The notes: generated by a model not told the origin, from the sequence alone. A stretch of 58,229 nt of DNA from a virus (IMGVR_UViG_3300043434_000302:1-58229); one strand, 5' to 3'; numbered from the stretch's first letter, positions 2,024 through 42,800 are shown. Translations and numbers: made by a program.

Positions 2024-4096
2024 TTAATACTCAATTATCACAACGCCAGCGGCCCCATCGCCACCGGTGCCACTTGAAGTATAAATACGCGACCCGCCGC
2101 CGCCACCGTATAATCCGCCGTCGGTGCCGAGTGTAGACATTGCGGGTGCTCCACCGCCAAGTATAGAGTTACCGCCTTGACCCACGCTCCATCCACCATT
2201 AGCGCTTGATTGCGAACCACCTTGACTAGCGCCGCCGCGGATGTTCAAATCCCCGCCACTTCCAACACCGCCAGTGGACCCTTGAAGCGAACCATTGGAT
2301 CGTCCGCCAGCTCCACCAGTTGCAGATATTGTAGTTATGGTCTCCGTGCCAGATGCAAGACTGGACGATCCACCACTCCCTCCGGTAGAAGTATATGCAG
2401 ACCCATTCCCGCCAGAACCAACTGTGACCGTTAATGTATTGCTAGGCGTTAAACCACTTAGAATTTTTATAGCGGCCCCTCCGCCAGCGCCACCCCCACT
2501 AGAGCCAGTGCCGTTTGCGCCGCTTGCGCCGCCGCCGCCACCGACAACAGTTACTTTAATCTTGGTGATGCCAGCAGGAATGGTAAACGTGCCAGATGAT
2601 GTGAATACTTCAATATTGCTAAACCCGCCAGCGGCGGTGGGTGCTGCGCTTGTCCATCCCGTACCATCACTAGTCAGGACGTTACCAGTAGCACCAGCCG
2701 ACGTTAAGCCAGTGCCGCCTTTGTTTGCGGGTATCGTGCCTGTCAGGTCACTCGTTGGGATTGTGGCTGAAGCGGTAAAGGGTGAAGTGCCGTTACCCTT
2801 AACGTAGCCGGTGAGGGTCGACACGCCCGTTCCGCCATCAGATACCTCAAGGGTTCCAGCAGTTGCGCCTCCAGCTCCGCCAGCTTGTGCGAATACGTCC
2901 CAAGTCGTACCGCTGTAAACAAACTGCACGCTGACGCCAGAGATGTCGCAGATAAGGTCGCTGGCATCGCCTTCAATGGTCGAGCCGTTACGCCCAATCG
3001 TCAAGTTATTTGTGGCCCATGATCCTACGCTATCAGTAACAATAACCTGATCGCCCACCGCTGGAGTGGCAGGAAGGGTAACTGTGAAGGATCCGCCGCT
3101 AGTGCTGGTTTGCACACCGTCATTTGCGGAAGCTGTATAGTTAGACGTCTTGACCGTAGTGTATGTTATGCCACCGGCTGCGGGGGGTTGCGATGACCAC
3201 GCCGTGCCATCGCTGGTCAGCACATTCCCAGCAGCGCCAACCGAAGTTATGCCGGTCCCGCCACTTCCTGCAGGCAGGGTACCAGTGACGTTCGTTGTGA
3301 GGCTTACGGTCGAAAGATACCCGCTTGGGTTTGATGCGTTGTAAGGCGTGTATCCAAGCGCCGTTACAATTGACTTGTTTTCCCACAGACTTGTCGATGT
3401 GTTGTAAAACAGGCCATCGTTGTTTGATGGAGTTTGAACCGCCACATCGTGCAACTCATCCATCTCATAGCCGTTTTGGACTTTGACAAATAACTTGCCC
3501 TGCGATGGGTGAGCGTGTTCCACCACAGCCATGTAAACCATGTGGCTTGGGGCATGTGGCTTGGTCGCCGTCAGTGTCCCAGCCGTTGTGGGGCTGAGGT
3601 ATAGTTGCTGCCCATCCGTGTAAGCAGACGTATCGATATTAGTGATGGTTCCGATCAGCGTGACGTTGCCATTGGAATTGTTGGCGATGTTGGCTGTGAC
3701 CAACCCAAGCGTCTGTGCTGACGTTGCATCGCTGGTTGCGATTGCCTTGCTGACAGTGGAAAGTTGACCAGTAGCGCCGCTAATATAGACAGCAGTGCCT
3801 TTTGTAAGCGTTGCGCCAGTGGTGTTACGAACAGGCAAAACAACATTGGATGTTGATCCAGCGACGGCAACAGATAGGTCGATGTTTGTCGTTCCAGTCA
3901 CGGCAATAGAGCCATCAGCCGATCCTATGGTCGGCTTTCCAGTCAGATCTGCATACGCGCCAGTAGTTGCTACGGTAGCGAGGGACGAGGTATCAGCCTT
4001 CGTCCCCAGCTCCGTATTCAGATTCGTGAAGTTTGCATCAACTTCATCGTTGGTAAGAGGCGAGCCTTTTCCAGACCGCGTAACAATAGTAGCCAT
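2024..4096 (-). CDS. Gly-rich tail fibre protein
   Basis: 690 aa; fibre-type N-terminus (TRSGKGSPLTNDEVDANFTNL), two GGTG...GNVLTSDG modules, Gly-rich C-terminus. Confidence 0.75.
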   Translation of the reverse strand: MATIVTRSGKGSPLTNDEVDANFTNLNTELGTKADTSSLATVATTGAYADLTGKPTIGSADGSIAVTGTTNIDLSVAVAGSTSNVVLPVRNTTGATLTKGTAVYISGATGQLSTVSKAIATSDATSAQTLGLVTANIANNSNGNVTLIGTITNIDTSAYTDGQQLYLSPTTAGTLTATKPHAPSHMVYMAVVEHAHPSQGKLFVKVQNGYEMDELHDVAVQTPSNNDGLFYNTSTSLWENKSIVTALGYTPYNASNPSGYLSTVSLTTNVTGTLPAGSGGTGITSVGAAGNVLTSDGTAWSSQPPAAGGITYTTVKTSNYTASANDGVQTSTSGGSFTVTLPATPAVGDQVIVTDSVGSWATNNLTIGRNGSTIEGDASDLICDISGVSVQFVYSGTTWDVFAQAGGAGGATAGTLEVSDGGTGVSTLTGYVKGNGTSPFTASATIPTSDLTGTIPANKGGTGLTSAGATGNVLTSDGTGWTSAAPTAAGGFSNIEVFTSSGTFTIPAGITKIKVTVVGGGGGASGANGTGSSGGGAGGGAAIKILSGLTPSNTLTVTVGSGGNGSAYTSTGGSGGSSSLASGTETITTISATGGAGGRSNGSLQGSTGGVGSGGDLNIRGGASQGGSQSSANGGWSVGQGGNSILGGGAPAMSTLGTDGGLYGGGGGSRIYTSSGTGGDGAAGVVIIEY

Positions 4097-18431: not shown

Positions 18432-18464
18432 AGGGGGTCGGCATCGCTGGCCCCTTTTGTTTTT
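18432..18464 (+). terminator. intrinsic terminator
   Basis: GGGGTCGGC-ATC-GCTGGCCCC followed by TTTTGTTTTT. Confidence 0.75.
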
Positions 18465-18486
18465 CCGCCGAATTTTTGGGGATGGC
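18459..18486 (+). repeat. 28-bp direct repeat, copy 2 (overlaps the tRNA 3' GCCA)
   Basis: Identical to 18101-18128. Confidence 0.95.
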
Positions 18487-18559
18487 GAAGGTGGCAGGAT
18501 TCGAACCTGCGCTCGCGGTTTTGGAGACCGCTGCTTTAGGCCAGCTAAGCTACACCAAC
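18483..18559 (-). tRNA. tRNA-Trp(CCA)
   Basis: D stem GCTT/AAGC; anticodon arm GCGGT-CTCCAAA-ACCGC; T arm GCAGG-TTCGAAT-CCTGC; G73 and encoded CCA; two U.U pairs in the acceptor stem. Confidence 0.88.
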
Positions 18560-18669
18560 ACAGTGACCCCGCTAGTGTGCTTCACTACTCAGTCGATCAG
18601 GCTTTTCACATCGAGAGGCCAGCGGGGTCTATCTCTCCCCATTACCTTCTATCGCCTACATGATCAACA

Positions 18670-18710
18670 GACGGGATCGCGGCCCTTGGATTTTTCCGCC
18701 GAAATTTTAG
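18670..18710 (+). repeat. third copy of the GACGGGATCGC...TTTTTCCGCCGAA motif
   Basis: Shares GACGGGATCGC with 18080-18090 and the TTTTTCCGCCGAA core. Confidence 0.85.
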
Positions 18711-18970
18711 GCGAAATTGATCAGGGCCAAGCCTACTGTCACCGCCAACCAGATCACCCGCTCTGCCATCTTGACCGCACCAGACTGATTCGTCGCTGCC
18801 TTCTCGAGCAGCCTCAAACGATCCTCATGATCGTCGATGGCGTCCCTGTGTCCATGCAGGCGTTCATCCACCCGCGACAGAAGCTTCAGCGCATCTGCAA
18901 TGGATTTCATCTCATCTTCTATGCGCCCAAGGCGATGGTCAATTGCTGGCAAATCCACTGCGGTTCTCAC
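18707..18970 (-). CDS. coiled-coil protein with C-terminal TM helix
   Basis: 87 aa; heptad pattern followed by VIWLAVTVGLALINFA. Confidence 0.65.
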   Translation of the reverse strand: MRTAVDLPAIDHRLGRIEDEMKSIADALKLLSRVDERLHGHRDAIDDHEDRLRLLEKAATNQSGAVKMAERVIWLAVTVGLALINFA

Positions 18971-19059
18971 TGGTTAATCACTGCGTCTTCCATATCATCG
19001 AGCGCTCTTTTACGCGAGAACAAACAAAGTTTTTTCGAAACTTTTTCAATACGTTATTC

Positions 19060-19130
19060 GTCATGCCATAAAAAAATACAAAAAAATGTTTGGGGGTGGG
19101 TTGACACATCAAAATACCTTCGACTATTAA
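19060..19130 (+). promoter_or_regulatory. putative strong early promoter with upstream A-tracts
   Basis: TTGACA (19101-06)-N18-TATTAA, with phased A-tracts at about 19070-19086. Confidence 0.6.
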
Positions 19131-19134
19131 CTAG

Positions 19135-19175
19135 GTCGTCGGCAGCGACACAAAACACTGACCCGCTCTTTGACA
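19135..19175 (+). promoter_or_regulatory. rrn-type antitermination leader (boxB-like hairpin + boxA)
   Basis: Hairpin GTCGT-CGGCA-GCGAC, then CGCTCTTTGACA (19164-75), close to boxA TGCTCTTTAACA. Confidence 0.6.
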
Positions 19176-19187
19176 TTGTGAAACGCT

Positions 19188-19223
19188 TGATACCTACGGG
19201 GGCTCCGGTCCCCGCTAGGATCA
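19188..19223 (+). ncRNA. leader hairpin, divergent variant of the repeated junction motif
   Basis: TGAT-A-CCTA-CGGGGGC-TCCG-GTCCCCG-CTAGGATCA; GCTAGGAT matches GCGAGGAT at 6 of... the same position relative to the inner stem, differing at one base. Confidence 0.45.
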
Positions 19224-19272
19224 TCACACCGCAGTCCGCTGCCGTCTGGTGATTTTAGCAAGGAGAAAGTAA

Positions 19273-19491
19273 ATGAATAAACAAGTTCTAATCGACGCCG
19301 TCCGCGATCATGCACTGGCGAACTACAACAGCAACGGCTGGGATTATCTGGTTGAGTGCTGGGAAGACGGAGACATCCTCGAGGTGATCGAGGGTGCCAC
19401 CAGCGAGAAGCAGGCCATCGCCAAGGCCAAGAAAGCTCTCGCACCGCTCGACGAATATCGGAGTGAGGTTCGATCATCCGGCGAGTGGTGA
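19273..19491 (+). CDS. early hypothetical protein
   Basis: 72 aa; AAGGAG RBS. Confidence 0.8.
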   Translation: MNKQVLIDAVRDHALANYNSNGWDYLVECWEDGDILEVIEGATSEKQAIAKAKKALAPLDEYRSEVRSSGEW

Positions 19492-19495
19492 TCCA

Positions 19496-19545
19496 CTGAC
19501 TTCCCCAGACCGTGGGGTTCTGCTCCACGGCGAGGATGAATTCAG
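19496..19545 (+). ncRNA. unrecognised junction hairpin, copy A
   Basis: CTGACTTCCCCAGA-CCGTGGGG/TTCTG/CTCCACGG-CGAGGATGAATTCAG. Confidence 0.75.
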
Positions 19546-19560
19546 CAAAGGAGAAAGTAA

Positions 19561-19743
19561 ATGCGTTACCCAATCATCGATACCACCCGCAGCTACACCG
19601 TCGAGCGCAACGTCTACGGCGACGAGTACGCTGGCTGGACTGTAGTTGAGCACTGCCCAGTACATGGCCTGCAGCCGTGGGAGTTTGTCCACGCAACATA
19701 CGATGAGGCGAAGGACAGTCTGGAAGCGTTCTTCGCGGACTAA
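19561..19743 (+). CDS. early hypothetical protein
   Basis: 60 aa; AAGGAG RBS. Confidence 0.75.
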   Translation: MRYPIIDTTRSYTVERNVYGDEYAGWTVVEHCPVHGLQPWEFVHATYDEAKDSLEAFFAD

Positions 19744-19794
19744 TCATTAACGGGGGGGGCTTCGGCCCCCAATAATCCAAGGAAGGTAATTAAT

Positions 19795-20004
19795 ATGACC
19801 AACATTGAAGCAATTATGCGCACAGCCGATCAATTGATCTTTGCAGCCGATGGCTATGCAGACGACGAAATGGTCTGGTTCGACAACGAACGATGGTTCG
19901 CAGGACGGCTGCGCGAGATGGCCGATGATCTTATCGATGACAACATCGAAAGCTGGGCCGTCTTCCAGCTAAACAAGGCGCACGCCGCTGGCTTCAATTA
20001 CTAA
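19795..20004 (+). CDS. early hypothetical acidic protein
   Basis: 69 aa; GGAAGG RBS. Confidence 0.75.
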   Translation: MTNIEAIMRTADQLIFAADGYADDEMVWFDNERWFAGRLREMADDLIDDNIESWAVFQLNKAHAAGFNY

Positions 20005-20048
20005 CACCACCAGACGGCGGAGCGATCCGCCGCGAGGATGGCGCTAGT
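20000..20048 (+). ncRNA. unrecognised junction hairpin, copy C
   Basis: ACTAACACCACCAGA-CGGCGGA/GCGA/TCCGCCG-CGAGGATGGCGCTAGT; same core, different stems. Confidence 0.7.
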
Positions 20049-20070
20049 GCCAAATACGAAAGGAATGTTT

Positions 20071-20445
20071 ATGTCTTTGAATTGGGATGTCTCGAAGATC
20101 GAGAACAACAAGGAAGTCTGCTTCACAGGTGAGGGCGACAATCGCTGCCTCGATCCCGTGACCAACACGTTGATCTGGTACACGTTGTGCCTTGGCATTG
20201 GCGAGATCAGCGAGAAAACCGTCGATGAGTTCTACATTCGCATGAACCTGTTCGACAGGCTCAGCACCGGACCCATGCACTGGGAGGCTGCAGGCTATCG
20301 CTCGATCACTCTCGAGGAGCTGCGGCAGCACATTGGCCTACACACCAACGTAGGTCGCGGTGAAGCACGCAGCAAATGGTTCAAGCGCAAGGTCGACGGC
20401 GTTGTCCGCGATCTCGAGTATGACCTGCGCAAGCAAGTCGCATAG
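20071..20445 (+). CDS. early hypothetical protein
   Basis: MSLNWDVSKI...; AGGA RBS 6 nt before ATG 20071 (ORF is open from 20038). Confidence 0.8.
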   Translation: MSLNWDVSKIENNKEVCFTGEGDNRCLDPVTNTLIWYTLCLGIGEISEKTVDEFYIRMNLFDRLSTGPMHWEAAGYRSITLEELRQHIGLHTNVGRGEARSKWFKRKVDGVVRDLEYDLRKQVA

Positions 20446-20504
20446 TCGAAACCCCTTCGGGGGTCTGGTACGGACTGACCGCCTGCCACTGATGAGACTG
20501 GTCG
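20443..20504 (+). ncRNA. type II hammerhead ribozyme HH1 (predicted cut after C20465)
   Basis: GTC-GAAA-CCCC/TTCG/GGGG-TC|TGGTA...TGCCA-CTGATGA-GAC; complete catalytic core. Confidence 0.9.
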
Positions 20505-20517
20505 AATGGAGATCAAC

Positions 20518-20691
20518 ATGATTGACGGATTAAAAACATTTTGTGCTGGCTTGGTCGTTCTGATCATTGCCAGCCTCATCATCGTCCAGCCCCGCTACAT
20601 TGGCTATGGCTGCAAGAACGCAGATGTTCCGCTGTTCGCTAAGTACGAAAGCGACTTCCCCACATGTGAGCGGATCGAACCAATTTTCTAA
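20518..20691 (+). CDS. small membrane-anchored early protein
   Basis: N-terminal TM segment and two further Cys; GGAG RBS. Confidence 0.7.
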   Translation: MIDGLKTFCAGLVVLIIASLIIVQPRYIGYGCKNADVPLFAKYESDFPTCERIEPIF

Positions 20692-20703
20692 GGGAGAGCA
20701 CCA

Positions 20704-21033
20704 ATGACACAAGTTATCGATCTTGAACGCTTCGCCACCAAGGGCGAGGTCACTGTAGTGAAACGTCTGGTCCGCATCGTGCTCGAGCGCGGATACATTG
20801 TCAGCATCAATGACGGCGAAGAGTGGACCGTCAAGCTCAGCACTGACCGCAAAGAGATTCTGTCCGCCCTTGGAACCACTGGCGAGGACATCATCCGCCT
20901 TTACAAGGACGGCGAACGGGCCGGATCGATCTGGCTGGTCTACGGCAACGCTGAGGACGGCAGCGAGCTGATCGCGGATCACAGTGACAACGAGGCATGC
21001 CACAGCATCTACGCTGAGGTGTACCCCAACTGA
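20704..21033 (+). CDS. early hypothetical protein
   Basis: 109 aa; GGAG RBS; V..NDGEE...WLVYGN....ELIADHS pattern. Confidence 0.8.
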   Translation: MTQVIDLERFATKGEVTVVKRLVRIVLERGYIVSINDGEEWTVKLSTDRKEILSALGTTGEDIIRLYKDGERAGSIWLVYGNAEDGSELIADHSDNEACHSIYAEVYPN

Positions 21034-21080
21034 CTTCCCCAGACTGCGGTTCTTCGGAGCCGCAGCGAGGATGAATTCAG
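21030..21080 (+). ncRNA. unrecognised junction hairpin, copy B
   Basis: CTGACTTCCCCAGA-CTGCGGTTC/TTCG/GAGCCGCAG-CGAGGATGAATTCAG; flanks identical to copy A, inner stem different. Confidence 0.75.
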
Positions 21081-21094
21081 CAAGGAGAAAGTGA

Positions 21095-21277
21095 ATGACC
21101 GAAGAGAAACTGGATGACTACACCGCCGTCATGATCTGCGAAGGCGTCGAAGATGCGGACTATGACCGCACCGTCGAAGCTTGGCAGTACCTGCATGACA
21201 CTGGCCTTGCCTACCGCCTCCAAGGATGGTTTGGCCGCTACGCTCAGTCGCTGATCGAACAAGGGATCATTGGCTAG
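21095..21277 (+). CDS. early hypothetical protein
   Basis: 60 aa; AWQYL.DTGLA..LQGWFGR.A..LIE.G motif; AAGGAG RBS. Confidence 0.8.
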   Translation: MTEEKLDDYTAVMICEGVEDADYDRTVEAWQYLHDTGLAYRLQGWFGRYAQSLIEQGIIG

Positions 21278-21278
21278 C

Positions 21279-21340
21279 AGTCGAAACGCCTTCGGGCGTC
21301 TGCGATGGGATGGCCTCCCCGCACTGATGAGACAGGCCAT
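21279..21340 (+). ncRNA. type II hammerhead ribozyme HH2 (predicted cut after C21300)
   Basis: GTC-GAAA-CGCC/TTCG/GGCG-TC|TGCG..GGG-ATGGCCT-CCC-CGCA-CTGATGA-GAC-AGGCCAT. Confidence 0.93.
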
Positions 21341-21354
21341 ATATGGAGAATGAC

Positions 21355-21618
21355 ATGGATGATGATGATTATATGGAACTTGGTGGCCTAATCGGCGAGT
21401 ACGGGATTACAAACGTCTTTAGCGCCGCGCTGGCCCATCAAGAGCAGTACTTCGAAGAAAGGCTGGCTGATTTGCTAAAGGCTGCTTCTAATGCCTTAGC
21501 CGATCTTGAAGGCATCATGCCGGAGTTTGAGCCAAGCGGTGATCGCGAGCATCCCGCATGGCAAACCATCACCGATCTTCGAAATGCAATTGAAATGGCG
21601 AAGGCAGGCTTTGAATAG
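21355..21618 (+). CDS. early hypothetical acidic protein flanked by identical ribozymes
   Basis: GGAG 6 nt before ATG 21355; the stop TAG overlaps HH3. Confidence 0.75.
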   Translation: MDDDDYMELGGLIGEYGITNVFSAALAHQEQYFEERLADLLKAASNALADLEGIMPEFEPSGDREHPAWQTITDLRNAIEMAKAGFE

Positions 21619-21678
21619 TCGAAACGCCTTCGGGCGTCTGCGATGGGATGGCCTCCCCGCACTGATGAGACAGGCCAT
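21617..21678 (+). ncRNA. type II hammerhead ribozyme HH3 (predicted cut after C21638)
   Basis: 62/62 identical to HH2. Confidence 0.93.
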
Positions 21679-21694
21679 GTAAGGAACAAGAATA

Positions 21695-22069
21695 ATGAAA
21701 ATCGTGTCTATACATTTTGACGGGGCAACCCGTTTCCAGAAGCCGTATGCCTACCTAACCGACATCGACGATATCAGTGTCGGTGATACCGTTGTCGTGG
21801 ACTCTCCGCATAACGGATTCGCATGCGTGAAGGTTGTAAGCATCGGGGAAACTGCTGAGCAGATCGAGAAGGCCCACAAGTGGATCGTCTGCAAAGTTGA
21901 TACCACATCGTATCTTGAGCGCTTGGAACGCGAAGAAAGGCGTAAGACCGTTATCGCAAAGCTCAAGAAGCTCGAGCAGCACCTTGTCGAAGAGGATCGT
22001 TTCGCGATGCTGGCTAAGCTCAGCCCAGAGGCATCCGCCCTACTCGAGGAGCTCAAAACGCTGAAGTAG
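21695..22069 (+). CDS. early hypothetical protein
   Basis: 124 aa; Y.Y.TD....VGD.VVV...KWIVCKVD followed by a coiled coil; AAGGA RBS. Confidence 0.8.
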   Translation: MKIVSIHFDGATRFQKPYAYLTDIDDISVGDTVVVDSPHNGFACVKVVSIGETAEQIEKAHKWIVCKVDTTSYLERLEREERRKTVIAKLKKLEQHLVEEDRFAMLAKLSPEASALLEELKTLK

Positions 22070-22128
22070 TCGAAACGGGCTCAGGCCCGTCTGGCGGGGT
22101 TGCCTCCCGTCACTGATGAGACAGGCAA
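22067..22128 (+). ncRNA. type II hammerhead ribozyme HH4 (predicted cut after C22091)
   Basis: GTC-GAAA-CGGGC/TCAG/GCCCG-TC|TGGCGGG-GTTGCCT-CCCGTCA-CTGATGA-GAC-AGGCAA. Confidence 0.93.
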
Positions 22129-22139
22129 AGGAGACTGAA

Positions 22140-22220
22140 ATGACTGACAACAAACTGCACGTAGCAATACGCTGCGGCATCTTCGCGATCATCGTGATTG
22201 CCGCCAACATTTGCGCATAA
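22140..22220 (+). CDS. 26-aa hydrophobic peptide
   Basis: AAGGAG RBS directly after HH4; MTDNKLHVAIRCGIFAIIVIAANICA. Confidence 0.55.
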   Translation: MTDNKLHVAIRCGIFAIIVIAANICA

Positions 22221-22223
22221 GCC

Positions 22224-22382
22224 ATGCAGTGGCGCGTGATCCTGATGGCGGATGGCAAAAGCGCTGTCCGCCACGTCAAAGCCAACAGCGCAGCCCTCGC
22301 GAGATGGAACGCTATCGGCGACTACAAACTAGAGACGGGACTAGATGCCACGGTGGCTCACATCGTGCGTACCAACCGTTAA
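22224..22382 (+). CDS. 52-aa hypothetical protein
   Basis: MQWRVILMADGKSAVRHV...; begins 3 nt after the previous stop. Confidence 0.5.
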   Translation: MQWRVILMADGKSAVRHVKANSAALARWNAIGDYKLETGLDATVAHIVRTNR

Positions 22383-22395
22383 TGTATTTATATGC

Positions 22396-22424
22396 TTGAC
22401 GCATAAAACCAGCGTCATTATGGG
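22396..22424 (+). promoter_or_regulatory. putative promoter with overlapping inverted repeat
   Basis: TTGACG-N17-TATGGG; TGACGC-N9-GCGTCA at 22397-22417. Confidence 0.55.
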
Positions 22425-22446
22425 CATTTATAGAAGGGAATCGATT

Positions 22447-23316
22447 ATGAAACAGGACGTTTACGAAACGGTCACCAACAAGGTGCTCGAGATGATGGAG
22501 ACACATGGCGCGAACTGGATCAACCCGTTCGCTCGCAAGGGCAAAGCCCTCCAGCCACACAACATCATCAGCAAGAAGCCATACCGTGGCATCAACCACA
22601 TGATGCTGCTCTGGTCACCATATGAAACGTCTGCTTGGGGAACCTTCAAGCAGTGGAACGAGAAGGACTGCAAAGTCCGCAAGGGTGAGAAGTCCACCCC
22701 CATCGTTTTCTGGCAGTTCATCGAGAAGGAAGACGACAAGGGCCAGAAGGTCACCATCCCTTTCCTTCGTCAGTACTATGCATTCAACGTAGCTCAGGTA
22801 GAGGGTGACTTTGCTGAGCGTCTATTGACCTGTACAGATAATGGTACAGGTGCAGAGGATATCGCGGCGGCTGAGGATTTTTTCCGCCAAATCCCTGCGG
22901 ATGTACATCACACACCAACTGGTCGTGCGTACTACAACCCCATGAACGACTTCATCAGCATGCCAAGCAAGGATGTCTTTGAAGATACGCCGACAAGCAC
23001 TGCGACTGAGAGCTACTACAGCACACTGTCACATGAGCTGACGCACTGGACGGGTCACACGTCACGTCTGGATCGCCTCACCAAGTCGCGCTTCGGTGAC
23101 GAAAGCTATGCACGGGAAGAGCTGGTCGCTGAGATCGGGGCCGCATTGCTGTGCGCCCACCTCGAGATCAGTTCCTCGCCTCGCCCAGATCATGCCCAGT
23201 ACCTCAACGGATGGATGAAGGCGCTGTCAGATCACAAGAAGGAATTCGTATCAGCAGCAGCGGCTGCATCTAAAGCAGTCGATTTCGTAATTGAAGCAGC
23301 AGGAAAGGAAGCCTAA
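22447..23316 (+). CDS. ardC: ArdC-family antirestriction protein (ssDNA-binding + zincin-like domain)
   Basis: YRGIN, WGTFKQW....VRKGEK, YYSTL.HELTHWTGH..RL.R and YAREELVAE motifs. Confidence 0.92.
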   Translation: MKQDVYETVTNKVLEMMETHGANWINPFARKGKALQPHNIISKKPYRGINHMMLLWSPYETSAWGTFKQWNEKDCKVRKGEKSTPIVFWQFIEKEDDKGQKVTIPFLRQYYAFNVAQVEGDFAERLLTCTDNGTGAEDIAAAEDFFRQIPADVHHTPTGRAYYNPMNDFISMPSKDVFEDTPTSTATESYYSTLSHELTHWTGHTSRLDRLTKSRFGDESYAREELVAEIGAALLCAHLEISSSPRPDHAQYLNGWMKALSDHKKEFVSAAAAASKAVDFVIEAAGKEA

Positions 23317-35940: not shown

Positions 35941-36300
35941 TCAAAACCTCCAATCTCTGCGGTCCTTCACCGCTCTTGTTCGTTCGCTTAAAAATGTGAC
36001 GGCAGGGCTAATGCGAAATTTGGAGGTTTCGCACAAGCGAACATTAGCCGGTTCCCGTCGCGATACGGTAGCCGTCACAAGCTGTACATATTTCCGCTTT
36101 TCTTTTTGCGCAAGGGAAAATGTGTTGTCGTCCTATATCTGCTGTGGAGATTTTTTCTACGCAGCTTTATATGCGCCGCGCACAGATGACACATGGCTAA
36201 TCTTTTTCCACATGTTTCGAAACACAGGAATTGACGCAGCGAAATTAGTCTCTATGTTGTGCATCGACACGGCAGTACGTGTTCGCAGAAAGGAATGTAT

Positions 36301-36942
36301 ATGGAGACTGTTTCGAATCCCAAGACGAAGAGCGTCTGGGAAACTCTTTCAGCCATAAACGTCAACGACCACATCGAGAAGAAGAGTGGCTTCTCATATC
36401 TGTCTTGGTCGTGGGCGTGGGCAACATTGATGGATCACTATCCCGACGCTGAATTCTATTTTGAGAATCAGACGGGAGAGCACGGCCTTCTAAACAACGA
36501 TGGCGTCATCCGCTATCCGGATGGAACCGCAGAAGTTCGTTGCGTGTTGACTGTCGACGCCACCACACACACGATGTGGTTGCCGGTGATGGACTACAAG
36601 AACCAAGCCATCAAGAATCCAAACGCACGCGACATCAATGACGCAAAGATGCGTTGCCTCGTGAAGTCAATGTCTCTGTTTGGCCTTGGCCTATACATCT
36701 ACGCTGGTGAAGATTTGCCAGACGCAAACAAGCAGAAGCCTGCTCCTGCAGCAGACCCCGTAGTTGGCCTCGCTGATGAAAAGTCTCAGCTACTTAAGGC
36801 TGTGACTGATGCAGCAACGCTCGATGATCTGAAGGCCGCTTTCACCAAGGCAAGCAAGTACGCACGCAATCGCAATGATGACGTGCTCTTGGCCGAAATC
36901 ACGAAGACCAAGGACGCACGCAAAGCCGCGCTCTCCAAGTAA
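36301..36942 (+). CDS. Sak/DUF1071 single-strand annealing protein
   Basis: EKK....YLSW.WAW...LPVMDYKN......DIN...MRCLVK....GLGLYIYAGEDLP. Confidence 0.88.
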   Translation: METVSNPKTKSVWETLSAINVNDHIEKKSGFSYLSWSWAWATLMDHYPDAEFYFENQTGEHGLLNNDGVIRYPDGTAEVRCVLTVDATTHTMWLPVMDYKNQAIKNPNARDINDAKMRCLVKSMSLFGLGLYIYAGEDLPDANKQKPAPAADPVVGLADEKSQLLKAVTDAATLDDLKAAFTKASKYARNRNDDVLLAEITKTKDARKAALSK

Positions 36943-36953
36943 GGATCTATCGA

Positions 36954-37856
36954 ATGGAACAGAGAAGTGACGAATGGTTTAAGGCGCGTGTAGGCGTCAT
37001 CACCGGAAGCCGTGTTGGCGGAATCCTTGGTGTTAACCCATTCCAGAAGACTGACGATGTGATGCGTGACATGGTTCGTGAGCACTTCGGAGCCGCTCGT
37101 GAATTCACTGGCAACGCCGCCACCAATCACGGTGAGCGCATGGAGCCTGTGGCATTAGCGTTCTACGAGTCCGTGGCTGGCGTCACAGTTACCCAGACTG
37201 GCATCGTTATGCACGATGACTACGGCTGGCTTGGTGCATCACCTGATGGGCTGATCGGTTTTGACGGTGGCTTGGAGATCAAGTGTCCGTTCTGGGCGAA
37301 GCAACCGTATTCGGTGCATGATAAACCAAGTTACTACGCACAGTGCCAACACGTCATGGAGGTGTGTGATCTCAAGTGGATGGATTTCTTCTGCTACATA
37401 CGGGAGGACTTATATCTTCTCGAGCGGCTGGAGCGTCACCCCACTTGGTTCGCCAACAACCTTCCAAAGCTTGAAGCGTTTCGCAAAAAGTACCTCGAAA
37501 TAATCGGGGACGAAACCAAAGCTAAGGCATACCTAGATACGGAGGTCGCTGTCGTATCAAACGTGCGCACTGAGTTGATGTCGGATCTCTTTCTTGAGAT
37601 CAAGGCGAAAGAGGCAGAGATTGCTCCGTTAAAGGATGCATACGAAGCTCTCAAAAAAAAACTGGGCTCTGAGTTCGGTTCTTTCCAGACGGGCCGCATT
37701 ACGGTTCAGAAGGTTGAGAAGAAGGGTGCGGTAGACCATGCCGCTGTTTACAAAACCGTAGACGTTGACGGTCTCTTAGCCGCAAAAGGCAAGTCCATCG
37801 AGGACTTTAGAAAAGAGAACGTCACCAGCTACAACGTGAAAATCATAGAGGACTGA
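36954..37856 (+). CDS. YqaJ/lambda-exonuclease family protein
   Basis: QRSDEWF.AR.G.ITGS, LGASPDG, LEIKCP and YYAQ.Q. Confidence 0.9.
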   Translation: MEQRSDEWFKARVGVITGSRVGGILGVNPFQKTDDVMRDMVREHFGAAREFTGNAATNHGERMEPVALAFYESVAGVTVTQTGIVMHDDYGWLGASPDGLIGFDGGLEIKCPFWAKQPYSVHDKPSYYAQCQHVMEVCDLKWMDFFCYIREDLYLLERLERHPTWFANNLPKLEAFRKKYLEIIGDETKAKAYLDTEVAVVSNVRTELMSDLFLEIKAKEAEIAPLKDAYEALKKKLGSEFGSFQTGRITVQKVEKKGAVDHAAVYKTVDVDGLLAAKGKSIEDFRKENVTSYNVKIIED

Positions 37857-37857
37857 T

Positions 37858-38040
37858 ATGGGACGGCCTAGAAAAGATAACCAGAACCGTCTGGTTCAAA
37901 CAACGATTGACGACGTGATGTATCGCGCACTGTGCGAGATGTCGATTAAGGAAGACAGGCCTATCGCTGGCGTCGTGCGGCAGGCAATCAATCTCTACCT
38001 TGCGCACATTGATCGTATGCGCAAAGTTGAACTATCATAA
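37858..38040 (+). CDS. ribbon-helix-helix DNA-binding protein with GRPRK N-terminus
   Basis: Alternating beta strand (LVQTTID) followed by two helices (VVRQAINLYL). Confidence 0.65.
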   Translation: MGRPRKDNQNRLVQTTIDDVMYRALCEMSIKEDRPIAGVVRQAINLYLAHIDRMRKVELS

Positions 38041-38052
38041 GAAAGGCACAGG

Positions 38053-38355
38053 ATGGCTTACGAACAAAAACCAAATACATTTTCTCTTTTCCGCGACAGC
38101 GAGGAACGGATTGAGGAGCGCAAGAAGTTCTATCGCGAGAAGGATTGGGACCCTGAAGGCGTTCCTATCTACAGCGGCAGGATGCTGCTCGAGAACGGCG
38201 AAGAGCTGAACATCGAAGCTCGCGTTATCGATGGAGCAAAGGGCAAGTTCTTTGCTGGTCGCGTGTGGAAGAAGAAGTTGGTTGACGGACCAGCACAGGC
38301 GCAGCGTCAGGCTCCGCCAGCACAAGACGATCTGGACGACGACGTACCGTTTTAA
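38053..38355 (+). CDS. SSB-like protein
   Basis: P.YSG...GKFFAG core and acidic tail DDLDDDVPF; recombination context. Confidence 0.7.
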   Translation: MAYEQKPNTFSLFRDSEERIEERKKFYREKDWDPEGVPIYSGRMLLENGEELNIEARVIDGAKGKFFAGRVWKKKLVDGPAQAQRQAPPAQDDLDDDVPF

Positions 38356-38370
38356 TGACAAATAAATACG

Positions 38371-38398
38371 GAAGGGGTGGCTTTGGTCACCCCTTCTT
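38371..38398 (+). terminator. hairpin, possible weak terminator
   Basis: GAAGGGGTGGC-TTTG-GTCACCCCTTC-TT. Confidence 0.45.
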
Positions 38399-38454
38399 AG
38401 GTAAATGGAACGACACTGCTAAGTGGTTCCTTAAATATTGGGGTTCTTTAACTG

Positions 38455-38802
38455 ATGTTGGTAATTGTTAGAAATGAAGGATCTCTTGTTTATGGAGGCA
38501 CGAGTCTTGATGAAGATCTTGAACACACCTTTGATCACGCTATCTGTGTTCAGAAGGTAGGTCAGGATATTGGCGGCGAGTTTGCTGAGATCTCTGTTAA
38601 GCGCAGTGATGGCTCAGAGGAGCTGTTCCAACTTGATCATAGGAATAAGGAGCACACCATCGACGGCGTTGTCGTGGTTGCCCTCATTGGCTTTATCAAG
38701 TGGAAGACAGATGACCAGCGCCTGCCAGCGGTAAGGCTTGGTTTTGATGCTCCTCGAAGCTACAGACTGGTTCGAGATAACGCGATCAAGCGTACTGAAT
38801 AA
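38455..38802 (+). CDS. CsrA/RsmA-like protein (elongated)
   Basis: N-terminus MLVIVR..G and C-terminus VRLGFDAPRSYRLVR resemble CsrA MLILTR..G / VRIG..AP....HR. Confidence 0.6.
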   Translation: MLVIVRNEGSLVYGGTSLDEDLEHTFDHAICVQKVGQDIGGEFAEISVKRSDGSEELFQLDHRNKEHTIDGVVVVALIGFIKWKTDDQRLPAVRLGFDAPRSYRLVRDNAIKRTE

Positions 38803-38818
38803 GTTAAATTGAAAGGTT

Positions 38819-39709
38819 GTGGTCGATATGGATATGATGACGACTGTTAGTGCCTCCAACCACTCACCGACTGGAGGGTTTGTGGAAGGCAAGACTTGGA
38901 ACGAAGCCGCAAGGCGGTGGCTGGACGGACGGACCACTAAGTGGACCAAGCAGGAGCAACACTATATAGAGGTGCTCTCGCAATACTTAGGTGGCCTGCC
39001 TCTTGGCCGCATTACAAAGGGCGTGTTGGCGGATCTTCGCGACGACATGCTCAAGACCCGCGCTGCGTCTACCGTCAACCGTTACTTGACAGTGCTGCGG
39101 TCAGTGCTGAATATGGCGCGGGACGAGTGGGAATGGATCGACACCGTACCCAAGATCAAGAGGATGGAAGAAGCCTCAAGGGTCAGGTACATCGATAAGG
39201 ATGAAGCTCGCCGCCTGATCAGGGAGCTGCCGTCACATTTGAAGGACAAGGTTATCTTCGCCCTCACCACTGGACTTCGAGACGCCAACGTCCGCGAGCT
39301 TCGCTGGGAAGAGGTCGACCTTCAGAACAGGATGGTGACAATCGATGGGGTTCGGATGAAGAACGGGAAGCCGCTTTCTATTCCTCTGAACGATACCGCA
39401 TACGACGTAGTCTGGAAAAGGTTCAGGGCGAAGGACAGGAACACTGAGTGGGTGTTTGCGTATGGCGGCAAGCCAGTACAGCGCAGCAACACGAAGGCTT
39501 TCAGGAATGCTCTAAAGAGAGCTGGGATCGAGAACTTCAGATGGCACGACCTGCGGCATACGTGGGCCTCATGGCATATCCAGAAGGGTACTCACACCGC
39601 TGCCGTTCGTGAGATGGGTGGCTGGTCTGATGACCGGATGGTTCAACGCTATGCGCATTTGTCGACAAAGCACCTGCGTCAAGCTGCGGATAACGTAGGT
39701 TCTCTATAA
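38819..39709 (+). CDS. int: tyrosine recombinase/integrase
   Basis: TGLR, KNG, HDLRHTWASW, GGW and RYAHL catalytic set; STVNRY motif. Confidence 0.93.
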   Translation: MVDMDMMTTVSASNHSPTGGFVEGKTWNEAARRWLDGRTTKWTKQEQHYIEVLSQYLGGLPLGRITKGVLADLRDDMLKTRAASTVNRYLTVLRSVLNMARDEWEWIDTVPKIKRMEEASRVRYIDKDEARRLIRELPSHLKDKVIFALTTGLRDANVRELRWEEVDLQNRMVTIDGVRMKNGKPLSIPLNDTAYDVVWKRFRAKDRNTEWVFAYGGKPVQRSNTKAFRNALKRAGIENFRWHDLRHTWASWHIQKGTHTAAVREMGGWSDDRMVQRYAHLSTKHLRQAADNVGSL

Positions 39710-39800: not shown

Positions 39801-39842
39801 ATAAAAAGCCCCCGATCCTTATGTGGTCAGGGGCTTTTTTAT
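39801..39842. terminator. bidirectional intrinsic terminator
   Basis: AAAAAGCCCC...GGGGCTTTTTT between convergent genes. Confidence 0.85.
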
Positions 39843-42800
39843 TAGCGCTTCTCCGCCTCTTCGATGAGGTCGTTGAACTCCGTCATGATGGCGGTGATCT
39901 CGTCGTCAAGCTTCTGCGTCTCTGACGGCTTAGCCCCTTCAAGGATCATCTTGCGACGCTCCCTGCGTAGGTCAGATACGTCACGGTAGTAAGACCCAAC
40001 GGAGTCGATAAGTTCTGCCTTCGGGTTCTCATCAAAGACCTCCGTGGTGTCCTGATCATTCTCTTCCCTAAGCTTGACCGTCTTCTTGAGCTCGTTGACG
40101 GCCTTGACGTTGTCGTAGAACTTGCCTCCTTCAGACGTCTTCCCACCGACTTCCCCATAGAAGCGCCTCACGAAGGCTATGTCGTTTGCTTCTATCTGCT
40201 CGCCACTGGATCCCTTCTCGAGAGTTGCTGTACTGCGGTACAGGAATTGCATGGGTGGCAGAACTTGCTCTACGAAGAACTTGATCTCTTCTGGGGTTGG
40301 TGACATGCCTCCAACCTCATACTCATCGCCGCCAGTGACATAGTTAATGACCTCCGCCGCCCTGCTGTACATGGCGTACATGACGGTGGTATCTCCCCGT
40401 GCGCGGCTCATGCCGGTGGTTGGGTTCAGGTCGTTGAAGTCCTTGTTGTAAATACGACGACCAAGACCATCTTCGTTCATCGCGTATTGGACGAACATAT
40501 CGAAGACTGATGGTGAGACAAACTCAATGAACCCAGCGCCGTAGGCAATTGGGTTGACGGAGTTAATCATGACCTTCGCTGAGCCACCAACAAACTGTCC
40601 GAATGAAAGCTGTCCTCTTGCTGCCTCAACCATGCGCCGACCAATGGCAGGGAACATGTTGTAGAAGTACGGCATTGGGATAGCGACATACTTGTCGGTG
40701 TCTGCGAACAGGCCAAGAGGGATAATGAAGGCGTGGTCCTTCACCCACTCTGGTATGTCGTCCTCGTCGTAACCAGCAGCGGCAAGTGCCAAGCCTTGAA
40801 TGACGCCCAGTCCAACGCCGCCAATCAAGATCTTCTTTCCAGCCTTACCCAGCATGGTCTTAATGTTGCGGTCAGTCGATGCGATAGAAGCGTTGGCAAA
40901 GCCGTACAGAGAATTGATCTCGCGTGTCCATTGGCCCTTCTGGTTGAAGTTCACCGTAATGTTCTTCGCGATCTCCGCCGCCTGCGCGTCTGTCATTCCC
41001 TTGTCGATAGCAATCTTAAAGGTGGCAAGACGTGTGGCATTTTCGAGCGCATCATTCCACGCCGTCACATAATCAACGACGACCTTTGGAGCACTCGTCT
41101 TTCCTGTAGACAACTGCTTGACTGCCTTCTGCAACTCCGCCTCCAGTTTTTCTGGATCGCGGTCGAAGTTCTTGAAAAACGACTCTCGAATAGCGGTGCG
41201 TCCACCGGCCTTCTCGAATCTATCGAACAGGTCAGCAACTTCCTGAGATCCAGCAGGCGTAGGCTCGCCACTATCAGTAGCGCGTATGACTCGCACCAGC
41301 TTCTTTGCATACAAAGGAGCCTTAGCCATGATCTTGAATTGCTCACCGTCCAGCGGCGTGCTGGTTAGGTTGACCATCACACCCCAGATGTCGCGTGTGA
41401 AGTTGACCGGTCCAAATTCTGGCATGTATTGAGTGCGCAACTGCGACCACATGCGCGTAATTCGTCCGACATTATTGATAAATGCTGCAGACGCGCCCTC
41501 GAGTGTTGGTAGATCCTCGTTCTTCAATACTGCAGCGATGTCTGTAGCCATCTTCTCGTCAGGATTAAAGACGATGAACTTGTCCGTTCCATCAACGCGA
41601 GTAGCAAAGACGTTTGGCTGGCGCTTGAAGGCGGTGTCGACGATGGTGTCTACGTTGCCAGTGCGTTTGTTGTACGCCCTCTTCGTTGGCGACTTGAAGA
41701 TGTCGTCAGCAAGATCAGGGTCCATGCCCATCGAAACCAACTGCTTGCGCACTTGATCAAGAGTGGCCGTCGACGGATCGATGACCATCCAGAAAGTCTG
41801 GTCCTTGTTTTCCAGCGCAGCCTGAAACACCGTATTGCCAAGACGGTTTGCCTCAGCGCGATTGATAGCCGCCTCCCGCTGCGTAACGATGTTGGCGATA
41901 ATGCTGCTGACCGGCTTGCTTGAGCCAACCGCTGCCTTCAAGGCTGATCCCTCTACGCTTGCGCCACGAGTGCCGAGTGCATGACCACCATCGACACCTT
42001 CGCGGAACAGAGGGACGTAGAACTTATAAGCATTGCGCAGGTTACGAACCGTCTCCGCTGACTCTATGCCAGAGTCCTGCAGTACTTGCAGCGTTCCGTT
42101 TGTTATAACGTCCAGCTTCTTGGCTACAGTCTCAAGGCGGTTACGCTTGGCGGGAGACAGTGCAGCTAAGTAAGCTTTGGCTGCGGCGTCGTTGATGCCA
42201 GAGCCACCATCTTTGAATGCGTCGTTGCGCTGGCGGATAATAGCGTTGCGCTCTACCGCATGCCGGTTGTGCATGTAGGTTTCTACTTCATTGATAGACA
42301 GCGCTTGTTTGCTGATCTCCTTCAGCACTGGCTGCAGTTCATTGAGGTGGAACTCTTGCGTTGTGTATGCAGCACGACTGCCCATCAACTGCTCAGCGCG
42401 GTCGATGTTTGTCTTATCGTTATAGAAGTCGTCGATGTTCTTTGTAAGCTGCTTAACAGAGCGCGTCCTGTTTACGAGTTTCTCGTACCAGTTAACAAGC
42501 CTTGGGAATCGCTCAGCCATTGGGTCCACGCCAAGAACAGCGGGGCCGGTCTTAAACTTAGGTGCGTTCGGACGGATGCTTGGCTTGGTTGCTTTGCCAC
42601 CAATGTTCAGATTGGCTGGACGGCGGACACCAGAGAAACGAATGCCTTCGCCGCTCATCATCTCACGAATACGGCCAGCGTTTGCATAGTTAAACGGCAC
42701 CGCTTCAGACAAGACGGTATTAGTGTCGCCGCTGTTGTACTGATCACTGCGACCTCCACGTTGCGGGGCAAGCGTGAAGTTGTTCAGATCCTCGAGCTGA

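Follow-up and report, generated by a model that had tools for sequence, protein, structure and literature searches.

The subject of this report is a row of ten consecutive small open reading frames (ORFs) with good ribosome-binding sites, at positions 19273-22220 of the plus strand of IMGVR_UViG_3300043434_000302, a 58,229-bp IMG/VR virus record that is analysed here as a whole and termed the window, in which most of the genes are separated by structured RNA modules, chiefly of two interchangeable kinds. Eight of the nine junctions are structured, as the initial annotation had stated: four hold a type II hammerhead, three hold a second, non-hammerhead motif that was named JM, and one holds a plain UUCG hairpin, the ninth (20691/20704) being a 12-nt spacer without structure. 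In related phages hammerhead and JM stand before the same gene, and the edges of both modules coincide with the points at which the genomes cease to be homologous. Judged from its sequence, the operon transcript is probably one that is built for cutting into gene-length mRNAs, with hammerheads and JM as the junction modules. The further claim that nearly every junction is punctuated by a ribozyme went too far, since a recognisable ribozyme is found at only four of the nine, and the three remaining motifs (A, B and C of the initial annotation) have no Rfam match and fold as a simple irregular hairpin.

Hammerheads and the JM motif

The hammerheads (HH1 to HH4; coordinates of all features are given in Table 1) were called with Rfam cmscan and the Hammerhead_II model (RF02276; gathering score 37 bits), and no further hammerhead was matched anywhere in the 58,229-bp genome. 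The covariance check places HH2, HH3 and HH4 above the gathering score but leaves HH1 below it (26.3 bits, E 0.025 in a 3.6-kb search); stem I of HH1 has a 2-nt bulge, which the model penalises. The Rfam alignments span model positions 1-66 of 66, the CUGAUGA/GAAA/GUC core is complete in all four copies, stem I and stem III are both closed, with stem II open, i.e., the topology of type II, and counting along the alignment puts the predicted cuts at the very nucleotides that had been proposed before. The position of the modules between the genes was also described correctly: three of them start at the A of the upstream TAG and HH2 starts 2 nt past it, and all four end 3-14 nt upstream of a GGAG/AAGGA ribosome-binding site. 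Stem II reads GUC/GAC, with its 5′ strand overlapping or directly following the upstream stop codon (TAGUC in three copies, TAG-CAGUC in HH2), and loop I pairs with the 3′ tail after stem II to form a pseudoknot of 5-6 bp in every copy. By every sequence and structure criterion applied, the four elements are thus predicted to be true type II hammerheads.

Comparison with relatives was based on 27 distinct hammerheads (window included), collected with a regular expression that required the core blocks and then filtered for a 3-bp stem II. In this set stems I-III and the pseudoknot are paired in 99.3% of cells, compared with 23-41% in slid controls. The five pseudoknot pairs are paired in 100% of the copies, with both-side changes at two of them (GC/UA/CG/GU and AU/GC), and the outer pairs of stem I in 97.2%, with both-side changes at three of four. 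Stem II is invariant (GUC/GAC) and therefore uninformative for covariation; all 27 copies have the A15.1-U16.1 pair (alignment columns 9-26) and also CUGAUGA, which the pattern used for selection required. A match at 10486-10538 of contig L133 (CUGAGGA, inside a gene) has no stem II and was dropped as a false positive before the count of 27. HH2 and HH3 lie within 69-nt direct repeats (21279-21347 and 21617-21685; repeat family D1) that are 97% identical and flank the 87-amino-acid (aa) gene 8.

The motifs A, B and C, which had been listed separately, are real and belong to a single family, JM, which is the second module. JM is an imperfect hairpin of 51-63 nt with the upstream stop codon within its basal helix, which reads CUGAnnUC/GAnnUCAG or, in the C form, CUAACACC/GGCGCUAG. 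Beyond this helix there follow one unpaired base opposite AU (a 1x2 loop), the pairs CC/GG, a 3x3 loop AGA/CGA, a closing C-G pair and a variable distal hairpin of 7-11 bp, the loop sequence of which is unconstrained. The hairpin is followed by a conserved CGAGGAUG with no U-tract, and the 3′ strand contains an invariant, Shine-Dalgarno-like GAGGA, paired with the CC of a CUCC-like 5′ strand.

Relatives of JM were found by exact-pattern scans of IMG/VR and of JGI metagenomes (17 stretches in the latter), and covariance model R1, built from 24 copies, gave 55 matches, 45 of them distinct, in 35 sources. Among the 45 distinct copies 92.8% of cells are paired (76% after shuffling, 28-46% when slid), a value that was matched by none of 500 shuffles, and both-side changes occur at 13 of 18 pairs. 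This alignment is biased in favour of the structure, having been fitted to the model; the initial MAFFT alignment agrees (93.4% paired, both-side changes at 12 of 18 pairs), and RNAalifold, unaided, predicts the same fold. Eleven positions are invariant across the 45 copies, which come from phages of 52% to about 70% G+C, an invariance that is partly built in because the patterns and the model used for most copies required the core; the model search did find the variants CCGGAC, CGC and a swapped closing pair (G...C). The upstream ORF has its in-frame stop at the U(G/A)A of the basal helix in 47 of 52 distinct contexts, and within 45 nt after the motif there is a ribosome-binding site with a start codon in 51 of 52, a lenient count in which the in-motif GTG of C-form copies was accepted as a start.

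JM resembles none of the 4227 families of Rfam 15 at E<=10, a search in which the interval 18900-22500 gave ten matches in all, and twister, twister-sister, pistol, hatchet, hepatitis delta virus (HDV)-like and hairpin ribozymes are lacking in this interval at the same threshold, as they are in contigs L097 and L114 at E<=0.1. Only chance-level matches (E at least 0.7) were obtained by blastn of JM-B with its flanks against phage records. Several known motifs were considered and rejected: a permuted hammerhead (there is neither CUGANGA nor a GAAA block), a K-turn or tandem sheared G-A motif (by eye, the strands misfit the K-turn pattern), a mini-ORF (there is no spacing between the Shine-Dalgarno-like bases and the AUG in GAGGAUGA, the frame of which is not conserved) and a SECIS-like element (C-type copies have UAA, not UGA). 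Candidates in L010, L065 and L136 were removed from the JM set as chance hairpins without JM flanks, and the scores of L136 and L058 are as low as 22.8 and 20.7 bits. A scan of genome contigs for a host gave no real JM, by the closing-hairpin check, among the matches listed (at least 120), one stretch having five closing pairs without JM flanks. The next best R1 match in the phage genome itself (19213-19260, minus strand, 15.8 bits, E 0.015) falls on the long hairpin of the leader, with a 3′ arm that reads ...AAUCACCAGACGGC... in reverse complement; it is probably a generic hairpin with the word CCAGAC, whether by chance or as a relic of an inverted JM.

Interchange among relatives and JM in distant phages

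Freshwater contigs that share genes with the operon mix both modules (L130, L133, L138, L142, L149/L160, L154 and L167/L177, with L174, L304, L307, L313, L314 and L318 as further members of the group). The gene starting with MSLNW has JM in front of it in the window and in L177, L142, L154 and L174, and a hammerhead in L133 and L160, which argues that both modules do the same job. Upstream gene families tend to keep their own 3′ module, while the gene that follows varies: four different genes come after the ...QGIIG gene with its hammerhead, and four after the ...YPN/D gene with its JM. When the window was compared with 12 relatives, BLAST blocks ended at 19277, 19495, 20000, 20442-20444, 21097-21100, 21337-21342, 21613-21617, 22065-22067 and 22134-22139, all of which are module edges. 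The suggestion of the initial annotation that the repeats serve as recombination joints fits this comparison of gene cargo, as the modules coincide with mosaic breakpoints. In one metagenome contig 21277 is joined to 21616 and the gene 8 unit between HH2 and HH3 is gone (the shorter side measures 100 nt; joints with less than 30 nt on one side or less than 95% likeness were set aside). In L130 an HH2-type ribozyme runs straight into the homologue of gene 10, the start of which comes after a hammerhead there as it does in the window. A single ribosome-binding-site module (AGCAAGGAGAAAGUAAAUG, with small changes) is repeated after the leader, JM-A and JM-B (19250-19276, 19538-19564 and 21072-21098) and precedes unrelated genes in relatives, which suggests that the context of translation start is standardised together with the junction module.

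JM is also present, without hammerheads, in G+C-rich phage and prophage contigs, where it always has a small gene on each side, with no family in common; Rfam gave no match at gathering in 12 such distant loci, and no other repeated junction element was found in L157, L126, L140 and L097. The gene that ends at JM in L157 (5931-6425) contains about 23 tandem 15-nt units encoding pentapeptide repeats, and some proteins of the pentapeptide-repeat fold act as DNA mimics. Upstream of the single JM of provirus L097 there is an ORF (2308-3009) with a ...DGNYPDWRRVIP... stretch, which we take to be typical of beta sliding clamps, so that the genes flanking JM would not all be tiny accessory genes.

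The phage genome around the operon

The genome has direct terminal repeats and is rated 100% complete. It encodes a portal/head-tail adaptor, large terminase, tail fibres, internal virion protein, primase-helicase and ribonucleotide reductase, the portal protein being 33-35% identical to portals of podophages of Pelagibacter, Roseobacter and Sinorhizobium, and DNA of this phage occurs in freshwater metagenome runs. The phage is podovirus-like, comes from fresh water and is probably temperate. The DNA of the operon gave no blastn match among 50,697 phage records. Long ORFs lie on the minus strand left of ~18970 and on the plus strand from 19273 to ~29000; the switch of strand at ~18970-19273 makes the operon the head of the rightward block, directly after a divergent control region. 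The tRNA-Trp gene adjoining that region is found in the same place in L167 and L177.

In the control region, the promoter-like site at 19101-19130 is kept in six of eight aligned relatives and was unlisted by the promoter consensus scan because its -10 hexamer has no T at position 6, and the stretch at 19170-19196 is a possible second promoter or operator. The long hairpin of the leader stops 4 nt upstream of the ribosome-binding-site module; the leader folds at -37.3 kcal/mol (z -4.0 versus shuffles) and is near-invariant in eight relatives, with two compensatory double changes in L160 that keep the long hairpin paired. The 60-nt junction around the UUCG hairpin folds no better than shuffles (z -0.58), and no intrinsic terminator (GC hairpin with U-tract) was detected in the interval 18457-22682, in which JM and the UUCG hairpin lie.

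Ten proteins were scanned against families, and it is only for the ArdC-like gene just downstream of the row that a function was assigned. This gene may be a separate transcription unit, as suggested by the promoter-like stretch in front of it. The 3101-aa LPD38 protein is likely an injected multi-domain protein, which, together with the ArdC-like gene, suggests heavy investment in counter-defence. Sak and YqaJ imply that the phage probably carries its own short-homology recombination system; the integrase clustered with them is of the ordinary phage type (PF00589 plus Int_N), lies 17 kb from the operon and is the sole integrase detected.

Table 1. Features of the operon and of the surrounding phage genome (positions in the window; bit scores of hammerheads with RF02276, of JM copies with covariance model R1).
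Feature	Position	Strand	Details
tRNA-Trp (CCA)	18483-18559	minus	adjoins divergent control region
Promoter-like site	19101-19130	plus	TTGACA, 18-nt spacer, TATTAA; by eye, low confidence
Second TTGACA box	19170-19196	plus	with invariant downstream stretch; 8/8 relatives; -10 element poor
Leader	19198-19259	plus	short hairpin 19198-19213, then ~20-bp hairpin 19214-19259
Gene 1	19273-19491	plus	72 aa, no family
JM copy A	19494-19547	plus	67.7 bits
Gene 2	19561-19743	plus	60 aa, no family
UUCG-tetraloop GC hairpin	19755-19770	plus	6 bp + cUUCGg loop, no U-tract
Gene 3	19795-20004	plus	69 aa, acidic, no family
JM copy C	19999-20049	plus	59.8 bits, fold z -2.5; UAA stop in basal helix; GNRA loop
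Gene 4	20071-20445	plus	124 aa, no family
HH1	20444-20506	plus	26.3 bits; predicted cut after C20465; pseudoknot UGACC/GGUCG
Gene 5	20518-20691	plus	57 aa, N-terminal half hydrophobic, no family
Gene 6	20704-21033	plus	109 aa, phrog_22565 (unknown function)
JM copy B	21028-21082	plus	67.2 bits, fold z -3.1; gene 6 UGA in basal helix; UUCG loop
Gene 7	21095-21277	plus	60 aa, DUF7417 / phrog_3908
HH2	21279-21341	plus	39.6 bits; predicted cut after C21300; pseudoknot AUGGCC/GGCCAU
Gene 8	21355-21618 (alternative start 21343)	plus	87 aa, very acidic N-terminus, no family
HH3	21617-21679	plus	39.6 bits; predicted cut after C21638; pseudoknot AUGGCC/GGCCAU
Gene 9	21695-22069	plus	124 aa, phrog_3489 (unknown function)
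HH4	22068-22130	plus	49.1 bits; predicted cut after C22091; pseudoknot UUGCC/GGCAA
Gene 10	22140-22220	plus	26-aa hydrophobic peptide
Promoter-like stretch	22383-22446		TTGACG ... TATGGG; by eye; between small-gene row and ArdC-like gene
ArdC-like anti-restriction gene	22447-23316		MPTase-PolyVal; downstream of small-gene row
Sak single-strand annealing protein, YqaJ exonuclease, tyrosine integrase	36259-39709		clustered
3101-aa ORF	39842-49147	minus	LPD38 'large polyvalent protein' domain near C-terminus

Proposed processing of the transcript, and other possible roles of the modules

The proposed mechanism is that the ten small accessory genes form one plus-strand operon upstream of the ArdC-type anti-restriction gene, the direction of transcription being inferred from gene orientation, ribosome-binding sites and the strand of the ribozymes. 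At four junctions the hammerheads would cleave themselves after GUC by internal transesterification, so that the upstream mRNA would end with the GC-rich hairpin of stem III and a 2′,3′-cyclic phosphate, and the downstream mRNA would begin with a 5′-OH within the hairpin of stem I, a few bases upstream of its ribosome-binding site. Decay that depends on the 5′ end is established in bacteria, and from this a base-paired start with a 5′-OH is expected to be poorly attacked. At three other junctions JM would take the place of the hammerhead as a nuclease-dependent cut site or as a stabiliser of the 3′ end. Each gene comes with a module of 50-70 nt, drawn from a small number of near-identical ones, so that the modules would double as homology patches for gain, loss and exchange of genes between related phages, for which repeated modules together with the annealing protein and exonuclease of the phage would provide a simple route.

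The initial annotation was not aware of such an architecture having been characterised, yet clusters of hammerheads flanking single prophage genes were published in 2011 (PMC3088659). Perreault et al. described multiple hammerheads that flank individual prophage genes, proposed that long phage transcripts are processed into gene-length mRNAs, and observed cleavage of three clusters in vitro and, for the cluster flanking ardA in Agrobacterium tumefaciens, also in Escherichia coli (Perreault et al., 2011; PMC3088659). These clusters (A. tumefaciens ardA, Azorhizobium caulinodans and Clostridium scindens) share with the operon close-set hammerheads between the genes of one phage transcript, type II form with the pseudoknot of loop I and 3′ tail, variable flanked genes and an anti-restriction gene in or beside the cluster. 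They differ in having three hammerheads, whereas here there are four, which alternate with a second, non-hammerhead module and have the stop codon built into stem II in each case, and for which cassette exchange between relatives is seen; JM-like hairpins may be present at the published loci as well. The hammerhead part therefore belongs to the kind described in 2011, and JM and the interchange are the new element. Neither was found in Rfam or in the literature, in a search that was made by topic, not by sequence; lists of ribozyme-associated candidate motifs (RAGATH and others) may contain a JM-like motif that was not added to Rfam.

Synthetic ribozyme insulators (RiboJ) and operon designs based on processing likewise place a hammerhead and then a hairpin ahead of the ribosome-binding site, which gives each gene a uniform 5′ end whatever precedes it, but these are engineered parts whereas the phage modules are natural. 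Short, repeated, structured elements that bound small accessory genes and mark points of exchange are likewise known as the PeSL cassettes of T4-like phages, which carry promoters, and as attC sites, the substrates of integron integrase; however, neither promoter-carrying modules nor an integron integrase were found in this phage.

By analogy, JM may be an RNase III-type site of nuclease-dependent processing or stabilisation, a reading that is held tentatively, at a little below an even chance. The analogy is with the RNase III signals of the T7 early operon, reportedly set out by Dunn and Studier in 1983. The early intergenic regions of T7 fold into a lower stem with a UGA stop, an internal loop and an upper stem of 9-13 bp, and JM has the same intercistronic layout of an irregular hairpin (8 + 2 + 7-11 bp with 1x2 and 3x3 loops, about two helical turns), which points to a nuclease. 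RNase III cuts the polycistronic early RNA of T7, a transcript of ~7000 nt, at five signals, and where a single strand is cut, at an internal loop, a stabilising hairpin is left at the 3′ end (PMC3867540). Both systems thus have irregular intercistronic hairpins with the stop in the lower stem and a GC-rich upper stem beyond an internal loop, an early (here putatively early) operon led by anti-restriction, and copies that are alike within one genome. They differ in that there is no sequence similarity, the JM loop is invariant across very different phages, and cleavage of JM by RNase III is putative.

Several observations speak against the processing scheme or its parts. RNase III needs little sequence, compared with eleven invariant positions in JM, and this invariance, though partly built in, would be better accounted for by a catalytic core or by a specific protein; moreover, the places of the RNase III sites in the folded T7 regions are ones that we assume. 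Five complete distant phage genomes have exactly one JM each and no hammerhead, so the role of JM need not be operon-wide processing. As for the hammerheads, HH1 stays under the gathering score, and minimum free energy folds are no better than shuffles for HH1 (z +0.38) and HH2 (z +0.23) and reach only z -1.62 for HH4, which is expected because the ribozymes are pseudoknotted but still lends no support. The four candidate RNA runs (X15, X16, X17 and X20, from 21 runs that are mostly freshwater metagenomes), three of them labelled 'METAGENOMIC RNA-Seq', are contigs without starts, ends or strand and look like DNA, and the bins in which they give no cover (19585-19701 and 21340-21456) carry no weight. 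Finally, the 'early' timing and the 'host-takeover' role that had been ascribed to the genes derive solely from position and from the ArdC neighbour.

The strongest alternative, which is nevertheless unlikely, is that JM stays uncut and acts as a block to 3′-exonucleases, as a site for an RNA-binding protein of host or phage, or as a device that loops out the spacer and so places a ribosome terminating at the stop codon beside the next ribosome-binding site. The stop in the basal helix (47/52 contexts) with the ribosome-binding site close behind (51/52), the Shine-Dalgarno-like GAGGA paired to CC and the single copies in distant phages are all consistent with it, and a junction in this operon can be filled by an uncut hairpin, as seen from the plain one with the UUCG loop (19755-19770). 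However, a common function in cutting is suggested by the replacement of JM, at one and the same junction, with a ribozyme that cleaves itself, and a mere stabiliser would need no invariant loop sequence.

It is rather improbable that the modules are mainly boundaries of cassettes at the level of DNA, exchanged by homologous or by site-specific, integron-like recombination, with RNA cleavage secondary. Homology blocks do stop at module edges, upstream families keep their 3′ module while the downstream gene varies, the metagenome joint 21277>21616 lies between HH2 and HH3, and Sak, YqaJ and an integrase are encoded by the phage. Yet the hammerhead core and pseudoknot are intact in 27 of 27 copies (a set selected for core and stem II), and the pairing of JM is kept through G-U pairs that exist on the sense strand only (GU 15 times and UG three times at one pair), which together argue for selection on RNA. 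The integrase is ordinary, and attC core sites were not seen in the JM alignment. Exchange at the level of DNA is compatible with processing of the transcript and does not replace it.

A still smaller probability is given to JM being a new class of very small self-cleaving ribozyme, so that seven of nine junctions would be self-processing. The same junction is occupied by a hammerhead in relatives, the eleven invariant positions lie in and around two internal loops with covarying helices on either side, no co-occurring protein seems to be needed, as JM stands alone in five complete, unrelated-looking phage genomes, and other ribozyme classes were discovered near hammerheads (PMC5737381). However, JM matches no Rfam 15 ribozyme family at E<=10 and folds as a single irregular hairpin that has no multi-stem junction, pseudoknot or conserved loop, which are the features typical of self-cleavers, and none of ten comparable candidate motifs that were assayed cleaved (PMC10085705). 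The wider proposal that JM is either a new ribozyme class or a substrate to which some unrecognised processing activity is dedicated, and that phages employ it and type II hammerheads interchangeably for cutting operons at stop codons, is considered equally doubtful.

That the matches to the hammerhead model are chance resemblances or relics without activity is very improbable, for although HH1 scores low and four of 18 consensus-conforming hammerheads were inactive in vitro (PMC3088659), there are four same-strand copies in 1.7 kb, each exactly between a stop and a ribosome-binding site; E values go down to 2.7e-8, and stems and pseudoknot covary.

What biological role hammerheads play in bacteria and phages was still called unresolved in a 2019 review (PMC6765202). 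The operon offers a dense natural case, with four ribozymes in 1.7 kb, each fused to a stop codon at one end and to a ribosome-binding site at the other, and a natural swap experiment, in which hammerhead and JM before the same gene give a direct way to ask what their job is. JM adds an RNA motif, conserved and covarying, that Rfam 15 lacks. If it proves to be an RNase III-type site, the ribozymes would be host-independent substitutes for nuclease sites; if it cleaves itself, it would be a new ribozyme class, and two unrelated RNA-cutting devices would replace each other at one site. The exchange bounded by these modules shows how small accessory genes, possibly ones for anti-defence, are shuffled by phages.

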